Below are positions 7,234-49,614 of a stretch of 64,000 nt of DNA, one piece after another; the first letter of the stretch is position 1; each line of letters opens with the position of its first letter. The notes below the pieces were generated by a model that was not told where the DNA came from, ran no database searches, and saw nothing but the letters and a program-made list of their open reading frames with translations. The translations under genes and the position numbers were made by a program. Source of the stretch: Candidatus Hermodarchaeota archaeon (GTDB lineage Archaea; Asgardarchaeota; Hermodarchaeia; Hermodarchaeales; Hermodarchaeaceae); assembly GCA_016839805.1 (NCBI GenBank), contig JAEOTO010000032.1, forward strand, positions 192,001 through 256,000, given 5' to 3'.

Positions 7234-7824
7234 CTACCTTGTAAAGGCGATGATATCAATTTTTGTGATTATTCCGGCAGGTCTGTCTTCATCCATTACT
7301 AACAATGCCTCAACGCCTGAGGCTATTTTCGAAAAAGCAGTTTCGGCACTTTCATTGATATCAATTTTGGGAAAAGGGTCATCCATTATTTCATGAACTG
7401 ACAATGCAAAAACCTTCTGTGACTCCATTGTTGTTAGTCTGCGAAGAATGGTACCTTCGCTAATACTTCCAACAGTTATATTGCCTTTCATTACGGGAAG
7501 CTGGGAAATCCCTAATCGCCTCATAATAATAACCGCGCGCCGAACTTTTTCGTTTGGGCCTATGAAGACCAAAGGATGAAGTTTTGAAGTTTGCCCCTTC
7601 CACCTTAAAAGATCCCGAATGCTAGAGTGGGATTTTTTTTGGCTCTCTATTTCGACAAGAATGCGTTTCAATGTAGATACGCTCGGATTCACCTGCCCCT
7701 TTTCAATACGTGCTACTAAGGATTGGCTTATTCCAACACGTGCAGCAAGCTCCGCTTGTGTTAGACCCACCTTCTTTCGAAGTTCTTGTAATTCTTTAGG
7801 TGAGGGAACTCGATATTCAGCCAT
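7234..7824 (-). CDS. XRE-HTH plus CBS-pair transcriptional regulator
   Basis: GLTQAELAARVGISQSLVARIEKG, ISQLPV, GIITKIDI; ATG at 7824 (the upstream extension overlaps hypF). Confidence 0.9.
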   Translation of the reverse strand: MAEYRVPSPKELQELRKKVGLTQAELAARVGISQSLVARIEKGQVNPSVSTLKRILVEIESQKKSHSSIRDLLRWKGQTSKLHPLVFIGPNEKVRRAVIIMRRLGISQLPVMKGNITVGSISEGTILRRLTTMESQKVFALSVHEIMDDPFPKIDINESAETAFSKIASGVEALLVMDEDRPAGIITKIDIIAFTR

Positions 7825-7915
7825 CTTAAAGCACGCACCACTAACATATACTACTGATAACAACTCCAAAAGAATTAATACCCTGCTTTTGCGGGTGAAT
7901 GGGGAGATGACACCG

Positions 7916-10240
7916 ATGACTAAAACCCAGCAAGCAGAAATTCGAGTTGTTGGTGTCGTACAAGGTATTGGCTTCCGACCATTCATCTACTCGCAGGCTA
8001 TAAAACATCAGCTGCTAGGATATGTTTTGAATACAGGTAATTCCGCTGTTAAAATTATTGTAGAAGGAGAAAAAAACAATATCATTGATTTCATTGATTC
8101 CATTGAACGAGATAAGCCTTTCCTCGCAGTAATTGATAGTATACAAACCATTTGGCGATCCTCAACTAATGGGTTTACCGATTTTCAAATTCACATCTCA
8201 AAGAATGAAGAAAAAGCCGGCGGATCAATAATCCCAGCAGATATTGCAGTCTGCGAAGATTGCATCAAAGATATGTCTAACCCTCACTCAAGACACTATC
8301 AATACCCCATGACTTGTTGTGCGATTTGTGGTCCACGTTATACCACCATCACAGACACGCCTTACGACCGCGAACGAACCACAATGGTTGACTTCCCGCT
8401 TTGTGAAGACTGTTCTGCCGAATTCAATAATCCCCTTAACCGACGATACAACGCACAAACAATTTGTTGCCCAAAATGCGGCCCAGAATTTCGACTAATC
8501 AATTCAGAGGGTTTGGTTGTTGACGCTACTGATGTATTTCAGGAAACCGTCAAGCTGTTAAACAAGGGTAAAATCGTCGCAATAAAGGGATTAGGCGGCA
8601 TTCACCTTGCAGTAAGAGCCGAACTTGAAGAAGAAGTACAACGTTTACGCAAGTTAAGAAACAAACCCCATAAACCATTAGCGATTATGTCACCTAACCT
8701 TGATGCAATTAAGCAATATGCTAGAGTCAACGACACGGCAAAGCAATTATTATTATCGTGGCGACGGCCTATTGTAGTTTTAGAAAAAATTAAAAAATTC
8801 CAGTTAGCCCCTTCCTTAGCTCCTGGACTTGACACGATTGGGGTAATGCTTCCCTACTCAGGAATCTACCTACGTTTATTCGATGGCCTCCAAGATGTCG
8901 CACTAGTGATGACTAGTGCTAATCCAGTAGGTTTACCAACCATCATTCACGCCAATACCTTCCAAGAACGCTTCATGAAAATGGCTGATTTCTTTCTCAC
9001 TCATAACCGTACAATTTACCAACGATGTGATGACTCAGTAGTTATCCCCACAAATGATCAAACCCTTATCATCCGCCGATCAAGAGGTTATACCCCTGAA
9101 CCCATTAATACAGCGAATATGGGACCTCCCATTCTAGCATTAGGAGCATTAGAAAAAAACACTGGCGCCATTTACCACAAAAAACGCATTTTCCTCACAC
9201 AGCACATAGGTGATGTTGACACCATAGAAACGTTACAATATCTCCAAGAAAGTCTATCACAGCTCCAAAAGCTACTACGTATCAGCAGCTTTGATGCAAT
9301 TGCCTGTGATCTTCACCCTGATTTCCTTACCACCCAATATGCCGAAAAGTTAGCCAAAGAACAAAAAATACCCCTAGTCCAGGTTCAACACCATCACTCC
9401 CACCTTGCTGCATTACTAGCTGACCATCAATTACCAATGGATGAAGAAATAATTGCCATCTGCTGTGATGGCGCAGGATACGGACCCGATAATACTATCT
9501 GGGGTGGAGAAATACTAGCGGGGAATGCACGTGAATACCAACGCGTAGGATATCTCGAACCGCACCCAATGCCCGGAGGAGATCTTGCGGCACAATACCC
9601 GTTCAGAATGCTCATGGGAATTCTATCTAAGAAATATTCGCAAACCAAATTAGAGCGCGTGTTTCAAAAAGAAGCAAAAAAAGCCTTACCTCAAGGCCAA
9701 ATGGAGTTACAAAACGTCATCACTCAAACATACCAAAAAATCAACACCCCCTTAACATCGAGCACCGGCAGAATTCTTGATGCTTTAGCAGCTCTCCTTC
9801 AAGTTTCTTACAAAAGGACATACGAAGGCGAACCAGCAATCCGTTTCGAAGCCTATGCAAACTCAGGTAAAAATAACCCCAAAGTTCATTTGGAAATCCC
9901 TGTAACCCGACAGGAATCCTCGTACCTTCTTGATACAGGAACCCTGGTCGACCAAGTTTTTCAACAACGATCAGACATACAGGGACCTGACCTAGCGTTG
10001 GCCGCACATCTAACTCTTGGTCAAGCCCTAGCAAATATCGCTGTACAATCAGCTAATGCGCGCGGATTAAATCGAATCGGTTTTTCAGGTGGCGTAGCAT
10101 ACAATAAGATCTTAACTAAGACCATTCGAGATGCAGTCGAATTAGAAGGGCTGACTTTTTTACTCCATCGAAATGTACCCCCAGGTGACGCAGGAACATC
10201 GGTAGGACAATCCCTTGTGGCACGCTCTCAAATTATTTGA
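7916..10240 (+). CDS. hypF: Hydrogenase maturation carbamoyltransferase HypF
   Basis: GVVQGIGFRPF, two CxxC zinc fingers, KGLGG, DLHP, QHHHSH, PPGD; start at 7907 or 7916. Confidence 0.96.
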   Translation: MTKTQQAEIRVVGVVQGIGFRPFIYSQAIKHQLLGYVLNTGNSAVKIIVEGEKNNIIDFIDSIERDKPFLAVIDSIQTIWRSSTNGFTDFQIHISKNEEKAGGSIIPADIAVCEDCIKDMSNPHSRHYQYPMTCCAICGPRYTTITDTPYDRERTTMVDFPLCEDCSAEFNNPLNRRYNAQTICCPKCGPEFRLINSEGLVVDATDVFQETVKLLNKGKIVAIKGLGGIHLAVRAELEEEVQRLRKLRNKPHKPLAIMSPNLDAIKQYARVNDTAKQLLLSWRRPIVVLEKIKKFQLAPSLAPGLDTIGVMLPYSGIYLRLFDGLQDVALVMTSANPVGLPTIIHANTFQERFMKMADFFLTHNRTIYQRCDDSVVIPTNDQTLIIRRSRGYTPEPINTANMGPPILALGALEKNTGAIYHKKRIFLTQHIGDVDTIETLQYLQESLSQLQKLLRISSFDAIACDLHPDFLTTQYAEKLAKEQKIPLVQVQHHHSHLAALLADHQLPMDEEIIAICCDGAGYGPDNTIWGGEILAGNAREYQRVGYLEPHPMPGGDLAAQYPFRMLMGILSKKYSQTKLERVFQKEAKKALPQGQMELQNVITQTYQKINTPLTSSTGRILDALAALLQVSYKRTYEGEPAIRFEAYANSGKNNPKVHLEIPVTRQESSYLLDTGTLVDQVFQQRSDIQGPDLALAAHLTLGQALANIAVQSANARGLNRIGFSGGVAYNKILTKTIRDAVELEGLTFLLHRNVPPGDAGTSVGQSLVARSQII

Positions 10241-36469: not shown

Positions 36470-39400
36470 CTAATTCGCTTCAATGGAAATAAATTCGTTG
36501 TTAATCTCACTTTCGAGGTCTTGGAAGTATTTCAGCATTACATCAAGATTCTCATGAGGTTGAACTTTCATACGTGCAATTTTTCCTACTACGGGGAGTG
36601 CTATAATCCGACGGAGTGCAGTTCCCTCATCAATTGCTTGCCGCATACGGTTCCAGAATTCCATGATAATCTTTAGCATCCAATAGCTTTTGGTCTCAGG
36701 GCAATAGGTATCAATGGGATGGAGTGCTGATTGCATTAGGTAGTCTTCCTTAACCATACGTGCTGCCTCTAAAATCGCACGTTCACGTTCAGGTAAAGCA
36801 TCTGGACCGACTAGTTGGACGATTTCACGGAGTTCTTTGTCATGTTGAAGAATTGATAGCGCTTCTTCAGTAATTTCGGGCCAATCATTTCCCATCTTGC
36901 CTTGGTACCATGTTGCTAATTCGTCTTTGTATAATGAATAGCTTTGTAGATAGTTAATAGCTGGGAAGAATCGCCTTGAAGCCATATCCTTATCAAGTGC
37001 CCAAAAGACCTTCGTTATCCTTAATGTTGACTGAGTAACTGGTTCAGAAAAGTCGCCACCTGCTGGTGAGACGGCTCCTGTGACTGTTACACTCCCTATT
37101 CGCGTTTCTGAGCCAAGTGTTTCCACACGGCCTGCGCGTTCATAGAATTCAGCTAATCGGCTTCCAAGATACGCTGGGTATCCCTCTTCACCTGGCATTT
37201 CCTCTAATCGACCAGAGATTTCACGTAGTGCTTCAGCCCAGCGGGACGTGCTATCCGCCATCAGAGCAACGTCATATCCTTGGTCTCTGAAATACTCTGC
37301 TATGGTAATTCCAGTGTATATTGAAGCTTCTCTAGCCGCAACTGGCATATTACTTGTATTAGCAACAAGAATTGTTCTTTCCATTAGCGATTTTCCACTT
37401 TTGGGGTCCTTAAGCTTAGGAAAGTCCTCAAGGACTTCTGTCATTTCATTTCCTCTCTCTCCACAGCCAACATAGACAATGATATCAGCATCAGCCCATT
37501 TCGCTAATTGATGAAGAGTTACAGTATTATGAAGTGTAACGGGTAGAACACCACCAACGAAATTATGAGTTTTTTCCACCGTGATGTCATAAACTGGAAC
37601 GTTTGTTTCAGTAATTTCTATTTTCTTAATTCGGTCAAAGTAGACTTGCTCGAGGATGTTCAAAATACTTTGTAGTTGTTCTCTTGTTTCTTGAGAGACT
37701 TGGGTATTGTTCGCATCTATTATCTCAAAGATAAGTCGTAATGTGTCGTTAGATGGTGTTTCGTCTAATCTTGTATAATTATCTAAGCGTAAACCACTCA
37801 TTTTTCTGAAAACATCGTGACCTTGAGGAGTTTTTCCTTCTGTTTTGAGAGAAAGTAATAGTTGTTGGTTAACAGGAACGACATCTAAGCCAACGAAGTG
37901 TGTAATTTCTTGTGATGCATATTCATATAACCGTTGAATTTTGATGTAGGGATATACTCCATTATCCTGCATGCATTTTGAAATACGTTCGGCAAATTTC
38001 CCATCAATTTCAATTACATACGAGTCATTCTTCTGTCTAGCCCGGTAAATCAGTCCAAGTCGTGTTAAGAGGTACCCTAAATCGCTATGAAGTTGATGGC
38101 TTGCCGTACTTAGTTGAAGGGAATATTTCGAGAAATGTCCATCACCAGCAATATATCCAGTAAGAAAGTGAATGAAGTAATCTTCTGGTGCAATTCGAAT
38201 ACATGAAGGAACACGAACGGTGTGGGATTTATCATCTCTTGGAAGATCAAGGGAGATTAGGAATTTCTTGAGGCTGGTATTTCGAAGATAGGCATATGGA
38301 GTTCTATCAGATGAATCTTGATCGATTTTTGGTTCTAGACCAAACACAATTAAGGATAATTCTTTGAAACGATACAAAATTTTTGGAGAAGAATTGTATA
38401 AGTAAATCCCTTGATATTTTCCTTTGAAATGTCCATCAGCCACAAATAATCCAAGCCATTCTGAAAGTTCCTTAGTAAGCTTGGTTGGAATGCGAAAGGG
38501 TTCTGACCCTCTTTCTGCTTTAACGAGAGCAACAGGTATTCGAGGTTTACCTACGAATTTCACTAATTTATCAAGAAATCTGAGCGTGGGTTTATTTTTT
38601 CCACTCTTATAACCAATGAGGACATCATAAGAAACTTCTAATTTCTTTGACAGAACTTTTAGTGTCATCTGTTTTTGGAGACTCTGAATCAACTCTTGCA
38701 TCATTTGAATAGCTTGTGGGTCGACTACACGCAAAGAGAGATCTATTTCATAAGAGTCAAATTGGGGGATTTGACCGGGTATGTTTAGTTTTCTTGGTAC
38801 GACGAGGTGATCACCTACATTTAATTGCTGAGCTTCAACTTCTTCGATTATTTCACCATTAAATCGGAAGAGCTTGTGAACTGGTGTAACCTCTACAGTT
38901 CGTCCAGAACGAGTAGTAATCTTCACAATCGCAGGAGTTGTTCCTCTGTATATGTGAGTTGCTTTAGCGGGAATGTATCTTGCTCCATCAAATGATAGGA
39001 TTCGAAGAGGAGTTTTCAGACTAATAAGTGTCTCATCTTCTGAATCTTGTTCAATAAATTCCCCTTGTTGTAAGAATTTCTTGTATAAGACTTGAATTGG
39101 TGTGGTGTCGCCATTCGAAAGTAAAACAGGAGTATCACCTGTCACACATTTTCCGGTGCCAAACCCTCCAGGAATGGCTCCAGTTCCACCTTTTGCAACT
39201 GGGAAGAAGGTATCAATGACACGTTGGCCTGTGTATAAGGGTACTTCGGTGCTAATTTTTGTTTTATAGGGTCGACCAATACGTACGGGCCATCGTTGGG
39301 TTAGTTTAATGTCACTTTTACCCGAAGGGGTTTGAATCTGTGCGATGACGTCCTTGATAGTGTAATCACCGCCATTGACTATCTGCGTTACTTTGCCCTC

Positions 39401-39868
39401 AATCCCAGGCGGTACAAGGATGCGGTGAAGAAATACGCTCGTTTCTTGTACCGTTCCTATTACATCACCAGCCGCGACTGTTGCACCCTTTGTGACAATG
39501 GGCTTAAATGTCCATGGTTTATCCTCTGGGAGCGGTGGTGCAGTAACTCCTCGTGTAATGAAGTCTCCGATCTGGTTTTTGATACTGGGGAGTGGTCGTT
39601 GAATTCCATCAAAAATAGAGCCAACTAAGCCTGGACCAAGTTCAACGTCAAGAGAAGTTCCAGTAGCAACAACCGGTTCTCCCGGTTTTAATCCAGATGT
39701 TTCTTCATAAACTTGAATATAGGCTCGATCACCTACAACTCGATTGACTTCACCAATTAATTCCTCTGTCCCAACTTTACAGACCTCAAACATAGTAACT
39801 CCAAAAAGTCCATCAGCTTCGATGAGTGGACCCGCAATTCGTTGTATATTTCCTGTTCGTGTAGACAT
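36470..39868 (-). CDS. atpA: A/V-type ATP synthase subunit A with intein
   Basis: [15 protein letters not shown]|[22 protein letters not shown]. Confidence 0.97.
37526..39148 (-). mobile_element. LAGLIDADG intein (541 aa) in the AtpA P-loop
   Basis: GK|CVTGDT...TPVHK...LGLFVADG...GYIAGDG...VYDITV...LHN|T. Confidence 0.95.
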
Positions 39869-39955
39869 AATCAACCGCCTTTTTTGAAACTCTGCTAACA
39901 AGTGTCACTATCAGCTATACTCAATTGACAAAAAGTTTATGGTAATTATCCAGTT

Positions 39956-41404: not shown

Positions 41405-42244
41405 TTAAAATTTTTCTTCCTTGGTTTTTCTCCTCGATTGAAGGTCTTCGAGTCTTCCCAATGGCGTGTGATCAAGCAGAAAGATTTCCGAATTATTCAT
41501 TGAAAGGTGTCGAAACAAGGGGATTCCCAGATGATTTTCTGTTACCTCACTATTAAGGACGTGACCTCTAAGCAGATCAAGGAAAGCTGGTAAAATTAGT
41601 ACCCTCATATTAAGCAACTGATCAACGTTTGCCCTCCTTGAGTCAATAGTTGCTTTTCCCAACCATTTTTTCATTGCATCAATTATAGTTGGTTTCCATT
41701 TTGCCTTAACCCAAACCCGGTGAGTAGTAATCCGGTTTTTTAGAGATGAAATGGCAATAACTGGATGAATATGGGCCATTAGAAGACTACTACAATCGAG
41801 GATGTCTTGTGTGGGTTGGGCATGACCGTGAATAAGAAATACTTGCTGGGAATCAAAGCTGAGTTTGAAACCGGAGGCTGGGATAATCTGGGTGTCATCG
41901 GGAACGACCAATTCTATGTCGGCATCATGATTTCCCCGCACAATGGTTAATGATGCCTTTTGTTTAATTTGGTTTAACAATACAGCAACCTTATGGAACT
42001 CTTGCGGTGAAAAATCACGAATTGAGTGTTTTAAATCGCCTAAAATAATCACTTCACTAGGCTTGACATTGGCAACCAATTGTTCAAAACGTTGAATAAT
42101 CCGTTCTGCAAGGTTTATTGAATATTGATCTTTCTTAAAGAGAGTGCGCTCGTAACCGATGTGTAAATCTGCGACGACAAGGATACGACGCGATTTTTCT
42201 TGAAGTAATAGTGCGGGTTCGTTTTTTATTAGTTTCAAATGCAT
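41405..42244 (-). CDS. Metallophosphoesterase (COG1407-like, Lhr-associated)
   Basis: ADLHIG, LGDLKH, RGNHD, HGH, AHIHP, LPAF. Confidence 0.9.
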   Translation of the reverse strand: MHLKLIKNEPALLLQEKSRRILVVADLHIGYERTLFKKDQYSINLAERIIQRFEQLVANVKPSEVIILGDLKHSIRDFSPQEFHKVAVLLNQIKQKASLTIVRGNHDADIELVVPDDTQIIPASGFKLSFDSQQVFLIHGHAQPTQDILDCSSLLMAHIHPVIAISSLKNRITTHRVWVKAKWKPTIIDAMKKWLGKATIDSRRANVDQLLNMRVLILPAFLDLLRGHVLNSEVTENHLGIPLFRHLSMNNSEIFLLDHTPLGRLEDLQSRRKTKEEKF

Positions 42245-42307
42245 AATATCTCTAAAGTATTCACTTGATAGGTATTTTTTTCTTTGTGATATGAAACAGG
42301 TGTAGCA

Positions 42308-42742
42308 ATGAAAGACGAAATCAACGTTGTGATTCAAACAATTCGAAAAAAACAAGGCATTTCAGGCTCAGAACTTGTTGTACTTGCACAGTTTTTTGGA
42401 GATCGGTTTTGGAAGGCTCTTCAGGCCGTAGTTAATGATTTAGTGAAAAAATACACCTTTGAACCAAGCGGAAGAGATGCATGGATTGTCGTTGGTAAGG
42501 CACGGGACTACCGCGTTTTATCTGAGGTTTATTGTGATTGCGACGATTTTTACATCAACGTAATTGTGAAACGCAGCGCTGATCTTTGTTACCATATTCT
42601 AGCAAAAATCCTCGCCGAGGCCCTTGGGGTGTTTTCTGAAATTTGTGTGGATGATATGATGTATGATACGCTCCGCGATGAATGGGAGGCAATTCCTGAA
42701 CCTCAATCAACTAGAAAAGGCAAGAAGCGGAGCATTGAGTAA
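42308..42742 (+). CDS. SWIM zinc-finger protein (Sws1/ZSWIM7-like)
   Basis: WIVVG...YCDCDDFY...CYHILA. Confidence 0.8.
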   Translation: MKDEINVVIQTIRKKQGISGSELVVLAQFFGDRFWKALQAVVNDLVKKYTFEPSGRDAWIVVGKARDYRVLSEVYCDCDDFYINVIVKRSADLCYHILAKILAEALGVFSEICVDDMMYDTLRDEWEAIPEPQSTRKGKKRSIE

Positions 42743-42785
42743 AAGTTTTAAACCTGCTAAGGGATTTGGCAGAACGGTTCTCCCC

Positions 42786-42893
42786 ATGAATCTAATATAC
42801 CAGATTTACTATCTTGTGGCTCTCGGATTAGCAATTATTAGTGGATTTCTTATCTTAGCGTATCATCTCCTTAGTGGTCGCGAGGAACGATAA
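42786..42893 (+). CDS. 35-aa single-TM mini-protein, OST4-like
   Basis: MNLIYQIYYLVALGLAIISGFLILAYHLLSGREER; LIxxYH at the TM end; TTTTAAA box about 35 nt upstream. Confidence 0.6.
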   Translation: MNLIYQIYYLVALGLAIISGFLILAYHLLSGREER

Positions 42894-42911: not shown

Positions 42912-45728
42912 CTATTGGGATTTTGGTTCAGCCCACCATTCGCGGGTTCGGATAAACTGCTTTTCATTTTCTAATATGAGACGGAAAAACTCACTCTCTG
43001 AACGATCATGACTCCCAGCCAAAACTCGTTTAACAACCGTCGGTCCAATACCTCGACCTGCCATCGCAATTAACGCAGGTTTCCCATAAGCCAACACTAC
43101 GTTAGCATTCTCGCGACCTTTGCGGAGTGTTTTTCGTTCTTCTGGCGATAATTTTTCACCTGCCCTGTGACGACGAATTGCACGTTCTAAAAGATCATCA
43201 GTTGGAAACACTCCTGCAACTAACCTTGACTCACATTTCCTACATTGGGGATGTTCTCCTAGGTGTTTTATAGTACGTACACTTGCCCATTGACCACAAT
43301 GTAAACAGACCAGTTTGACTTTTCGATTAATCAAACGCTTTTTAGTTTGCTCAAGGATATAGGCCTCAGGAACTTCGGGCTCGAGAAACTCCCCAAAACG
43401 TGCAAGAATCTGACGAGCAAAGGGAGATGGTCGTTTCCGGAATAATCGTTGCAAAACAACTTCGCCGTTCTGGATTGCCTTCAGGAGATCCTGGGTTTCT
43501 TTCAGAGACAGCTTATCTATGTAAAATTCACGAAGCGCCTCTTCAATGATTGGAGTTCCAGTAAAATATTGTATCATTCTCAGTAATTGAGTACTTCGAA
43601 GATTAGCCTCTCGGGAAATGACTCCAAATCTTAATGCGATGTGTACAAACCGTCTAGCAAAGTATGGAGACCGTAATAAAATGAGCTCCAACAAATCATC
43701 CATATGGGTAGGTTCAAGCGATTGGAGGCCCTCACAAATAGCTTCACCAACTTCATATCCTCCTCCACGTTCAAACCGGAAAAGAATACGGTACTGGTCA
43801 GCATGAAAAACGACTTCGACGCCTAATTGTGAAGTTAGGAGACCGGCAAGGACTCGTCCAAGAGTTTGATTAATGCGTGTACCGTAGCAAGAATGAATTA
43901 CTACAAGTTCATGCCCAATCTCGATGTAGATTCTTTGGTTATCTGGGATAAAATCCTCTTCAAGTTGTTTTGTGATAGTTTTTATTAAAACTTCACGTGC
44001 TTGAACATCATAATCGATCTTAAAATCGATGGATTTCGGGTGATCTAGATTGTCAGCGATGGTATTCCAAAGATCTGCAACTCCTTTGGCCACGTTTTTC
44101 GATACTGGAATTAGTTCTCCACTCCATCGCGGAATTCGACCTTTTGTATGATTGATAGCTGTAACATAGACTTTCTCGTCATCTTGTTTGACAACCTCCC
44201 ATGGACGCCCGCGTAGAACCAGAATATTTCCTCTTTGTCCATATTCTTCGGCAAAACCGGAATCGAGTCGACCAATAGGTCTGCTAGTAGCCATGTTAAC
44301 AACACGATGAAACGGGATGTCTGGAATGACTGAGAGATTTTCGAAATAATATGCATAAGACTTACGTCTCGGTCTGAGTATGAACTCATCTCTTGCTAAT
44401 AACCCCTCTTTTTGAAGGAAATATATGACCTCTGTTATTGTATCTTGTTCAAGTTCGTTATAGGGCGTTGCTTGTTTTATAATCTCAATTGCGCGTTGGT
44501 ATGGGAGGGTTTTGTATTCAATAGCCAAACCAACCAGTTGGTGAGCAAGAATATCAAGGGCAAGATTATGGATAGGAGGTGTTTCAAGCCGACCTTTCAG
44601 GGCTTGTTGTGCAACCACTAGACTCTCACAAATATCATCAAACCGCGTAGTTAACATAACCCCCTTCGACTCTCGGTCTAACTGATGCCCAGACCGTCCA
44701 ACGCGTTGAAGTAATCTAATAACTTGACGGGGGGATCCAAATTGAATTACCAAATCAACAGTGCCAATATCGAGACCTAATTCCAAGGATGAAGTACAGA
44801 CTAAGTAGGGAATGATGCCCTCTTTAAAGTGGGTTTCGGCTTCAATACGGGCTTCGCGAGAGAGAGAACCGTGGTGAACTCCAAATTCATTCCCATGAAG
44901 TTTTGCCAATCTAAGGGCTAATGCTTCAGCTGTTTGTCTTTCATTACAAAATATAAGCGTGGACCTGTGTTCAGTAACAAGCTCCCATATCCGTTTCGCA
45001 GGTCCATCGAGTGGAGATTCATCCGAATCCCCATATGAAAAGGGAACATATTCAATGTGAAAACGAAAATCTTTGGGTGCAGGGGATTTAATAATTCTGA
45101 CCTGTTCTCCCCCACTCATAAAAGCTCTAATTTCGTCGGGGTTTCCGATAGTTGCAGACAGACCAACTCGTTGAAACGCTTTACCTGTTAATGCTCGGAG
45201 CCTTTCTAATGCTACCATTAGCTGAACTCCGCGTTTGCTGGTAGCTAGTTCGTGAATTTCGTCGATGATAACACACTGAATATGTTTCAAGTGCTCTCGA
45301 ATACGTTTTCCTGCTAAAAGGGCTTGAATTGTCTCAGGAGTTGTGATGAATAGTTGAGGAGGTTTAAGTGTTTGTCGTCGTCGTACTGAAGGTGAAGTGT
45401 CACCGTGACGGACTTCGACGCTAATCTGAAGTTGCTTTGCAATCAGAACTAATCTTCTCAAAATATCCCGATTTAAAGCACGTAATGGTGTAATCCAAAG
45501 AATTTGTACGCCTTTCTTGTTGTTAGGTTTTGTGAGAAGACGGTGGATTAGGGGGAGAAAAGCCGATTCGGTTTTTCCATGACCAGTCGGAGCAATGAGT
45601 AGGACGGATTCCCCGCGAAGTATGTGGGGAATACTACGTACCTGTATAGGTGTAGGGTTCTGAAATCCCAGTCTTATGATTTCCTTGTAAAGCTGAGGAT
45701 TCAACTTTTTAAATACGTCCTCGACCAC
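42912..45728 (-). CDS. lhr: Lhr-family SF2 helicase
   Basis: APTGHGKT, RHGDT, DEIH, GLSAT, TSSLELG, QRVGRSGH, C-terminal zinc finger. Confidence 0.93.
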   Translation of the reverse strand: MVEDVFKKLNPQLYKEIIRLGFQNPTPIQVRSIPHILRGESVLLIAPTGHGKTESAFLPLIHRLLTKPNNKKGVQILWITPLRALNRDILRRLVLIAKQLQISVEVRHGDTSPSVRRRQTLKPPQLFITTPETIQALLAGKRIREHLKHIQCVIIDEIHELATSKRGVQLMVALERLRALTGKAFQRVGLSATIGNPDEIRAFMSGGEQVRIIKSPAPKDFRFHIEYVPFSYGDSDESPLDGPAKRIWELVTEHRSTLIFCNERQTAEALALRLAKLHGNEFGVHHGSLSREARIEAETHFKEGIIPYLVCTSSLELGLDIGTVDLVIQFGSPRQVIRLLQRVGRSGHQLDRESKGVMLTTRFDDICESLVVAQQALKGRLETPPIHNLALDILAHQLVGLAIEYKTLPYQRAIEIIKQATPYNELEQDTITEVIYFLQKEGLLARDEFILRPRRKSYAYYFENLSVIPDIPFHRVVNMATSRPIGRLDSGFAEEYGQRGNILVLRGRPWEVVKQDDEKVYVTAINHTKGRIPRWSGELIPVSKNVAKGVADLWNTIADNLDHPKSIDFKIDYDVQAREVLIKTITKQLEEDFIPDNQRIYIEIGHELVVIHSCYGTRINQTLGRVLAGLLTSQLGVEVVFHADQYRILFRFERGGGYEVGEAICEGLQSLEPTHMDDLLELILLRSPYFARRFVHIALRFGVISREANLRSTQLLRMIQYFTGTPIIEEALREFYIDKLSLKETQDLLKAIQNGEVVLQRLFRKRPSPFARQILARFGEFLEPEVPEAYILEQTKKRLINRKVKLVCLHCGQWASVRTIKHLGEHPQCRKCESRLVAGVFPTDDLLERAIRRHRAGEKLSPEERKTLRKGRENANVVLAYGKPALIAMAGRGIGPTVVKRVLAGSHDRSESEFFRLILENEKQFIRTREWWAEPKSQ

Positions 45729-47980: not shown

Positions 47981-48670
47981 ATGATAGTCTGTTGCATCAT
48001 TCCTGCTTATCAAGAATCGCGTGCGGTAGATCAGGTAGTAACAATTTCTCAGAAGTATTGTGACCTGGTGGTGGTAGTTGACGATGGCAGTACTGATGGT
48101 ACAGGACAAATTGCCCAAGATGCGGGTGCCACAGTACTCCGGCATCACCAAAATCGAGGGAAAGGTGCAGCTCTAAGGACTGGATTTGCCTTTGCAATAA
48201 AACACCAATATGATGTGATAATCACCTTGGATGGGGATTTGCAGCATAATCCTCATTCCATTCCCCGGTTTCTTACACACCTTAAACAAGGATTCGATAT
48301 CGTTGTGGGCTCGCGATATTCAACTCGATCTGAAAAAATGCCGTTTGTACGGAAATTAAGTAATCTCATCACTACACAAGCTCTTAGGGTGTTCTTCAAA
48401 ATACCCGTGACAGATTCCCAATCAGGCTATCGCGCTTTTAGAAGAACAGTGTTAGAAAGAATCTCTGTACGTGATGATGGATTTGCAGCAGAAACGGAGA
48501 TCCTCATCGACGCTCAACGAGCTGGGTTTGTAATTTCTGAGGTTCCCATTGCAACAAATTATGGGGATGAGGAATCGAAAATAAAGGCTCGCCGTGATAT
48601 TGCACAATGGCTTTTAACGCTTGCACGAAACCTGGTTTACCGTCCACGTTTTTTCAGCCACAGCACATAG
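47981..48670 (+). CDS. GT2 glycosyltransferase (DPM1-like)
   Basis: IIPAYQE, VDDGSTD, GKG, DGDLQH, DSQSGYR. Confidence 0.92.
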   Translation: MIVCCIIPAYQESRAVDQVVTISQKYCDLVVVVDDGSTDGTGQIAQDAGATVLRHHQNRGKGAALRTGFAFAIKHQYDVIITLDGDLQHNPHSIPRFLTHLKQGFDIVVGSRYSTRSEKMPFVRKLSNLITTQALRVFFKIPVTDSQSGYRAFRRTVLERISVRDDGFAAETEILIDAQRAGFVISEVPIATNYGDEESKIKARRDIAQWLLTLARNLVYRPRFFSHST

Positions 48671-49614
48671 ACAAACACTACAATCCCAGCAACTAACACT
48701 AATACTACAAAGAAAATCATAATCGACGTAGGATCTTGGAGTAAGGGAAAGGACATCCATCTAAAAATATTAGACCACAATAAGGAATTATCCATTGATT
48801 GGAACCAACTTTGATTTGTTGCAGCACAAATAGTGTCAGCAAACATTGTAGTTGATGTACATAACACAATTCGTGAATTTCCGTTTTCAAAGGCTGCTAA
48901 CCATCCTGGTTGGTTACTGATGTGTTGTCCATTTATCGCCACGGCTTCTGAGGTCTCAGCTCCTGTGGAGACAAGAAGAGGGGAGATATCGGTGGTAAGA
49001 GAACCTGCCGCAATTATGATGGATTTAAGCCCCGCTGCAAGGAGGTCACGATAGAAAGTCGTATTAAAGTCTGAACCGTTTATCTGGATGTTATAAGGGA
49101 TACCAATAGCGTTCATAGGATCGATTATCCCATCTCCTTGTGTATTATTACCCTCTAAGAATGTGGTAAATTGGATTCTATCTTCAGGCAGCCTTTGTAA
49201 AATCGCGTTCAATGCTATTGGATTTCCTAGCTGCCTTCCATCAACTTGATAGTCACTTAGCAGGAACAAAGAACCGCCCCGAGTTACGTAATTCGAGATG
49301 ACTTCCTGCTCTGATGATGAATAGTTTTTGCCTGGATTAGGAATGACCAAAATATGAGAACGAGATAGATTTTCTGCTGTTAATCTTCCTTCTTCCAAAA
49401 TTCTTACAAAATATTCTGGATACTCTTGGAGTTGATCAATGGCTTGTGAAAAGTTTCGATTTATAGGGCTAAACAATTGGTCGTGGCTAAAATCAATCAC
49501 AATCGTGATTTGCCCTTCTTCTCCTGAAGTCCTTGCACCTACTTGAGGTAGCACAAATATCAGTAGAATAACCACAAGTCCGACAATAATCTGTTGGCGG
49601 GAGGTATGGGCCAT
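48637..49614 (-). CDS. Membrane-anchored GIFT (GldG/IFT52/OST48-like) domain protein
   Basis: Signal peptide, IDFSH, ILVIPNP, YVTRGGSLFLL, C-terminal TM plus KKRGR. Confidence 0.7.
   Translation of the reverse strand: MAHTSRQQIIVGLVVILLIFVLPQVGARTSGEEGQITIVIDFSHDQLFSPINRNFSQAIDQLQEYPEYFVRILEEGRLTAENLSRSHILVIPNPGKNYSSSEQEVISNYVTRGGSLFLLSDYQVDGRQLGNPIALNAILQRLPEDRIQFTTFLEGNNTQGDGIIDPMNAIGIPYNIQINGSDFNTTFYRDLLAAGLKSIIIAAGSLTTDISPLLVSTGAETSEAVAINGQHISNQPGWLAAFENGNSRIVLCTSTTMFADTICAATNQSWFQSMDNSLLWSNIFRWMSFPLLQDPTSIMIFFVVLVLVAGIVVFVYVLWLKKRGR

Follow-up and report, generated by a model that had tools for sequence, protein, structure and literature searches.

The 35-codon open reading frame at positions 42786-42893 of the window (the whole stretch of DNA analysed here, 64,000 nucleotides long) is a real gene under purifying selection, and we lean, with moderate confidence, towards its product being an Ost4-like small subunit of the Asgard oligosaccharyltransferase (OST). 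Should the predicted binding of this peptide to STT3 be real, common descent with eukaryotic Ost4 would be likely.

The encoded peptide begins with M-N-L-I-Y-Q and has a single hydrophobic stretch (residues 7-26), its hydrophobic core VALGLAIISGFLILAYH ending in A-Y-H and being followed by the tail LLSGREER. The gene and its immediate upstream region are organised as follows:

42786..42893, plus strand: encodes the 35-aa single-pass membrane micro-protein, stop included (ATG at 42786, TAA at 42891-42893)
42663..42785, plus strand: spurious 5' extension giving a 76-aa frame and overlapping the 3' end of the SWIM-like gene
42746..42752, plus strand: TATA-like TTTTAAA, 34-40 nt before the ATG and right behind the stop codon of the SWIM-like gene
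42769..42781, plus strand: conserved GCAGAACGGTTCT, which follows the box and precedes the ATG; it probably contains the transcription start and a short leader
42308..42742, plus strand: SWIM-like gene, 144 aa, directly upstream (weak SWIM match, 13.5 bits)

A six-frame search of 41 related genomes retrieved a stop-free orthologue, with 35-94% identity, in all 19 genomes of the taxonomic family to which the window's genome belongs (the window's and 18 others; this family is called f1 below, and f27, f6 and the like are other families of the same phylum), and no convincing counterpart in the 22 genomes from other families. The start is fixed at the methionine (the sister genus, with four genomes, uses GTG for it in three). 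Ahead of the ATG there is no conservation at the protein level, the stops of relatives being found at differing places, and at one locus (L014) the frame starts at the M itself. The 35-aa reading is therefore correct and the 76-aa frame around it spurious, as the sequence-only reading of this DNA had supposed when it described a single-TM mini-protein here.

When the f1 orthologues are compared pairwise, mean pS is 0.74 vs a pN of 0.22, and the median dN/dS is 0.16. Non-consensus bases amount to 0.22, 0.10 and 0.43 at codon positions 1, 2 and 3, the third position varying four times as much as the second, and such a coding-type pattern is absent from the two shifted frames. That there is no gene at all, only a frame that is open by chance or a conserved element without coding function, would be in agreement with the very short length of the ORF and with the absence of the window's exact 35-aa product from the protein collection. 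Against it, every orthologous locus is open, the substitutions follow the coding pattern just described, and a family profile recovers the micro-protein, with start signals in place, from 130 of 400 genomes of the phylum. As the open frames and the substitution pattern refute it for practical purposes, we regard this reading as hardly credible. Gene callers annotate the ORF sporadically, as nameless products of 35, 45, 52, 58 or 69 aa, with one named protein record, 'hypothetical protein [Candidatus Odinarchaeota archaeon]'; two proteins among 5.8 billion share words with the micro-protein (queried in a 40-aa version), and the DNA datasets containing the locus are marine and other sediment metagenomes, no RNA dataset being listed with them.

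The TATA-like box attributed to this gene is also found, and its position is kept: TTAAAAA (in most relatives) or TTTTAAA lies at -40 to -34 at 15/15 loci of the genus, and the micro-gene of the sister genus has AGTTAAAAG as its TATA-like box. The GCAGAACGGTTCT stretch is nearly identical across the genus, though it is non-coding there. The TTTTAAA box may have promoter activity and, from the usual archaeal spacing, the micro-gene transcript would carry a leader of about 10 nt.

The gene belongs to a family that extends beyond f1. The profile built from the 18 f1 orthologues (A1), in which M1, Q6, L22, I23, H27 and G31 are invariant, was searched against 301 genomes of the phylum and led to a second taxonomic family, f27, with ORFs of 34-36 aa that end in G-Y-H-L-[VL]-[SA]-G-E-E-E-E. 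Both f1 and f27 have an invariant H27, preceded by Y or F at residue 26. Because the micro-gene adjoins an Lhr-type helicase gene both in f27 and in the window, the flanks of Lhr loci were inspected in 60 further genomes. In the window, the helicase gene and the phosphoesterase gene on the other side are:

42912..45728, minus strand: Lhr-type helicase, convergent with the micro-gene, 18 nt between the stops (Pfam DEAD, DEAD_assoc, WH_Lhr)
41405..42355, minus strand: calcineurin-like phosphoesterase near the micro-gene

In f6, f8, f14 and f15, a hydrophobic ORF of 31-38 aa is found upstream of Lhr on the same strand, its peptide ending in ...L-I-L-[AG]-Y-x-[IV]-x-[GSA]-E-E and each copy being equipped with its own start signals, either a TATA-like box (GATTATAAG in f6) or a GGAGG site (f14, f15). 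A syntenic alignment of 26 members (A5) needs gaps only near the N-terminus; the five-residue gap that MAFFT places between the f1 and f27 peptides (alignment A2) is probably wrong. The A5 profile detects the family in 130/400 genomes of the phylum (E<=0.001): 19/19 in f1, 85/89 in three pooled families (nearly all of the matches listed being from f6), 8/12 in f27, 4/5 in f15, 3/4 in f14, 2/135 in f9, 1/31 in f4, 1/22 in f21 and 0/14 in f23. Its peptides, of 31-38 aa, share the tail ...LILAY.[IV].[GSA]EE. As the micro-gene is missed or mis-started by gene callers, A5 could serve to annotate the family.

This extension changes the weight of the YH motif on which the proposed homology with Ost4 had relied. 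As [YF]-H, the motif is conserved throughout f1 and f27; in f6, f8, f14 and f15 the Y is kept and the H is lost, with T, M, S, I or Q in its place. Judged from the aligned peptides, what the wider family conserves at its core is Y26 together with the acidic tail, and not YH. Since only the Y persists across the syntenic family, a YH match is a poor marker of homology, and it is the Y and the acidic tail that matter for any claim of orthology with Ost4.

Two possible partners of the peptide are encoded in the same genome:

contig 46, L043:5524-8589, minus strand: STT3, 1022 aa, the sole STT3 gene of the genome
217..651 of the window, plus strand: OSTC/DC2 homologue, 144 aa (PF04756 at 34.4 bits for a cut-off of 27, C-terminal half of the model only)

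STT3 has the catalytic residues D62, D180-x-E182 and WWDYG (559-563). Its best solved relatives are human STT3A (6s7o_A, E 1.5e-85) and yeast Stt3 (6c26_A, E 1e-73); at E<1e-5, its PDB matches include no archaeal AglB chain of full length, and by these similarities it is classed as a eukaryote-type STT3, closest to STT3A. Within the phylum, the STT3 of f1 is as distant from that of family f2 as from those of other families. Its cytoplasmic TM12-TM13 loop (residues 461-486) contains TRRRRRITPP, conserved in f1, and is [RK]-rich in 26/26 aligned Asgard STT3 rows. The OSTC-like protein that had been noticed in the window proves to be a homologue of human OSTC (6s7o_H, E 8.6e-9, residues 11-138 vs 12-143). 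In eukaryotes, OST subcomplex II has OSTC as a second small partner of STT3A. DC2/OSTC (6S7O chain H), a member of that subcomplex with a homologue in the same window as the micro-gene, has three TM helices and is detectable by sequence, and the micro-protein is unrelated to it. As PF04756 (Ost3/OSTC) is present in 364/400 genomes of the phylum, the presence of such a partner does not discriminate.

Some observations on gene order accompany these partners. The OSTC homologue and the micro-gene are on the same contig, 42 kb apart; in many f6 genomes the two are about 16 kb apart on one contig, a loose but recurrent arrangement (for instance G100 C8, 20989 and 37190; G095 C11, 9663 and 25976). 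In f3 (G031:C119, G020:C69), an OSTC-like gene is located directly beside STT3 and divergent from it, as in G020 C69, with the OSTC-like gene at 7517-7858 (minus strand) and STT3 at 8341-10053 (plus strand); this adjacency provides gene-order support for an STT3-OSTC pair in Asgard archaea. On contig 26 of the window's genome, a frame of 71 aa (G000:C26:27105-27272, plus strand, L047) matches Pfam Ost5/TMEM258 at 18.3 bits (cut-off 27.4, E 0.006) and may be an Ost5-like subunit.

The relationship between the peptide and STT3 was addressed by co-folding STT3 residues 1-620 (alignment A4, 26 Asgard rows) with the peptide (A1). The pair reaches an ipSAE of 0.75, the best of three controls 0.00; the three runs share at least 90% of their contacts, and the pLDDT of the peptide is at least 80. 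The mark used is reached by 58/80 solved complexes and 2/110 mismatched pairs, figures that hold only roughly because they were obtained with the analysis's own alignments. The two peptides substituted as controls were unrelated 35-residue proteins that are poorly folded (pLDDT 38-42) and probably not membrane helices; when STT3 is replaced, the score is again 0.00.

The predicted site is that of Ost4, as the sequence-only reading had required of a homolog. The modelled contacts involve STT3 residues 27-53 (TM1), 154-166 (TM3), 457-468, 493-508 (TM13) and 524-530; on the standard 13-helix topology, we take residues 27-50 to be TM1, before the D62 loop, and 487-508 to be TM13, the last helix before the WWDYG domain. 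The peptide is modelled antiparallel to TM1 (STT3 32/35 with its residue 26, 41/42 with 15/16) as well as to TM13 (497 with 17/20, 504 with 13/16), and these contact pairs place it N-out/C-in, an orientation for which the peptide sequence alone gives no indicative charge bias. According to a review of cryo-EM structures, 'Ost4 is nestled between TMH1 and TMH13 of Stt3', and its topology is N-out/C-in (PMC7226087). The best-defined contacts of the model involve peptide residues 13-26; the yeast Stt3-Ost4-Ost3 subcomplex is disrupted when charges are introduced at Ost4 residues 18-24 (PMC7226087). The acidic tail, as modelled, would fit electrostatically beside the basic TM12-TM13 loop of STT3. 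Because the STT3-Ost4 complex has already been solved, passing the co-fold indicates likeness and is not proof that this copy binds; the predictor, having seen Ost4 in that place, might put any short TM helix there. The model supports binding of the peptide to STT3 but does not show it.

Comparison of the sequences gives a fainter signal. Yeast Ost4 has 36 aa and human OST4 37 aa; the yeast sequence given in the sequence-only reading is correct, being identical to PDB 1rkl_A, and the human sequence was likewise confirmed against the PDB. The Ost4 profile does not recognise the window peptide: Pfam searches of the 35-aa and 76-aa products return no family at E<=10, and PF10215 finds nothing at the micro-gene locus of the window's own genome (one chance match lies elsewhere) and nothing above the curated cut-off of 25 bits in 301 genomes of the phylum. 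Profile searches of the PDB with A1 and A5 retrieve no Ost4 chain at E<=10, and a profile search against 1.84 billion representatives gives three matches only, all of them proteins of the own family. Two candidates were set aside: the best PDB match of A1, a TM helix of an RND pump (MexB 923-947, E 0.029), was taken as a matter of composition and chance, and an ESM Atlas feature search returned nameless clusters, YldA and MgtS-like proteins at 0.78-0.83, below a meaningful level.

The gapless alignment with yeast Ost4, put forward as a sign of homology, carries little information, as the 5.3 bits of yeast Ost4 on the family HMM are reached by 13/2000 shuffles. Among the 26 A5 members, five match Pfam Ost4 at 11.7-16.6 bits (cut-off 25), which makes Ost4 the Pfam family matched by most members, every other family being matched by three at most; SecD_SecF_C and Sec61_beta are found among these other weak matches. 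Four identified Ost4-matching members, one in f15 (16.6 bits, E 0.0073), one in f8 (12.2 bits) and those of the two genera of f1 (11.9 and 11.7 bits), belong to separate lineages and all set Y25/26 on model position 25. The same register of Y26 is obtained when A5 is aligned by hhalign to yeast and human Ost4 (probability 11%, P 0.0028); with yeast Ost4 alone, the probability is 6%. Sequence tests have little power on peptides so short, and even the Ost4 chains of yeast and human retrieve one another from the PDB at a mere E of 0.07-0.08. The likeness of the peptide to Ost4 in sequence is weak: no test is significant, and the weak signal is consistent.

Short frames close to the PF10215 threshold in other genomes were mostly noise among those inspected. 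Two kinds of frame, both at 15-18 bits, resemble eukaryotic Ost4 more than the window peptide does: a 43-aa frame ending ..LIYHLISIPKR.. (L039, G093:C15:5427-5480), and a 38-aa frame of f9 with ..LGMSLFLLIVLHYF.. (L027/L038, in G158 and G119).

For Ost4 itself, we take Pfam PF10215 and PDB 1RKL, 2LAT, 6EZN, 6C26 and 6S7O as references. The window peptide (35 aa) resembles eukaryotic Ost4 (34-37 aa) in being a single TM helix with a Y at residue 25/26, at the cytoplasmic helix end, followed by H in f1, in co-occurring with a eukaryote-type STT3 and an Ost3/OSTC-type partner, and in its predicted N-out/C-in place between TM1 and TM13 of STT3. It differs by its acidic tail (G-R-E-E; EEEE in relatives), which is neutral or basic in eukaryotes, and by the missing N-terminal MI[ST]D.QL motif, the invariant Q6 of f1 being one position off the register of that motif once Y26 is set on Y25. 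The G-to-Y spacing is 12 residues (G14-Y26) in the window peptide vs 10 in yeast and human, and the wider Asgard family has no conserved H where eukaryotes have YH.

The micro-gene had also been presented as a possible overlooked eukaryotic signature protein. It is not an overlooked kind, because Ost4 and Ost5 homologues have been reported in most Asgard classes, Ost3 and ribophorin I being placed with these small Asgard OST subunits (Eme et al., 2023, Nature 618:992, PMC10307638). In the accessible part of the supplementary discussion of that study, only OST5 and WBP1 are named as new, not Ost4, and no Ost4 sequence or accession was found in the accessible part of its supplementary text. The claim made for those homologues is the same by kind. 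What our analysis adds is that the peptide of the window's lineage is tied to a syntenic family found across the phylum, that YH is not the feature conserved in that family, that STT3 carries a basic patch and that adjacency to Lhr is conserved.

Taken as an Ost4-like subunit, the 35-residue single-pass protein would be a small accessory subunit of a eukaryote-type OST. Its helix would pack into the groove that TM1 and TM13 of STT3 leave between them, also touching TM3 and the cytoplasmic end of TM12, with the N-terminus outside and with Y26 and the acidic G-R-E-E tail at the cytoplasmic face, near the basic TM12-TM13 loop. It would bind STT3 in the cell and, by analogy with eukaryotic Ost4, would stabilise it and help to hold the OSTC/DC2-like subunit. 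The proposal of an archaeal OST4 homolog in the sequence-only reading is upheld in part: the co-fold site, the OSTC partner and [YF]-H in two families speak for it, and the profile search and the loss of H elsewhere speak against it. If the binding to STT3 is true, this lineage has the whole eukaryotic OST subcomplex II (STT3, Ost4-like helix and OSTC/DC2), and would be a further lineage for the published view that a multi-subunit OST predates eukaryotes.

Alternatively, the peptide could be a true small membrane protein that has nothing to do with glycosylation and serves, for instance, some other membrane complex as an accessory or regulatory helix, an explanation that we hold possible, if rather unlikely. 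The co-fold with STT3 would then be a false positive arising from a learnt short helix in the groove, which the choice of controls would permit, as their pLDDT does not mark them as membrane helices. The missing significant sequence link to Ost4, the weak matches to other TM families (SecD_SecF_C, Sec61_beta) and the Atlas features, which give nameless or unrelated small-protein clusters only, are all in agreement with such a protein. It would nevertheless have to account for a score of 0.75 with three concordant seeds that falls to 0.00 when STT3 is replaced, and for a modelled site, an orientation and contact residues that all match those published for Ost4, as well as for Ost4 being the most frequent weak Pfam match, in four lineages and in one register.

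The gene neighbourhood, on its side, does not point to glycosylation, and this argues against the Ost4-like subunit: the conserved neighbour is the Lhr helicase gene and not a glycosylation gene. In the window, the immediate neighbours are the SWIM-like gene, the calcineurin-type phosphoesterase gene, Lhr and RPA, and the sole sugar-related gene nearby, for a GT2 glycosyltransferase, is 5 kb off. The SWIM-like gene is a conserved neighbour only within f1, as an orthologue (60% identical) is located upstream of the micro-gene of the sister genus and none is found in f27. The adjacency to Lhr extends over six taxonomic families (window 42912..45728; L118-L139), whose STT3 proteins are 37-43% identical between them; in f6, f8, f14, f15 and f27 (16 genomes), the micro-gene precedes Lhr in the same orientation at a distance of 260-440 nt, with a spacer of about 250-300 nt between the two genes. 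Such a conserved adjacency between unrelated genes is unusual. The peptide could work with, or control, an Lhr helicase/MPE phosphoesterase repair module, as a membrane tether or as a regulator in a second role. The depth of the divergence over which the adjacency is kept, and its occurrence upstream of Lhr in five families and at the Lhr 3' end in the window's genus, favour such a link. Orientation and distance nevertheless vary, the genes being convergent in the window and the micro-gene of the sister genus being flanked by RPA without an adjacent Lhr; no copy lacks a TATA-like box or GGAGG site of its own; and a hydrophobic helix has no obvious role beside a soluble helicase, in which Pfam predicts no membrane part. 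We therefore consider this function improbable. That the peptide is Ost4-like and has, in addition, a second tie to genome maintenance, being linked to or co-regulated with the Lhr/MPE module, appears more improbable still; if the tie to Lhr were true, the adjacency would be more than a frozen accident of gene order.

Further observations were made on this neighbourhood. The phosphoesterase, SWIM-like and Lhr genes resemble the bacterial Lhr-MPE repair pair. A 325-aa protein encoded at 48637..49614 (minus strand) has weak matches to ABC_transp_aux and to the IFT52 GIFT domain, and in f6 a C-terminal TM anchor that looks related to it (..NWLS..) is found on the far side of Lhr. The catalytic subunit A of an A-type ATPase (1143 aa, 36470..39901, minus strand) contains an intein with a LAGLIDADG homing endonuclease (Intein_splicing, LAGLIDADG_3).
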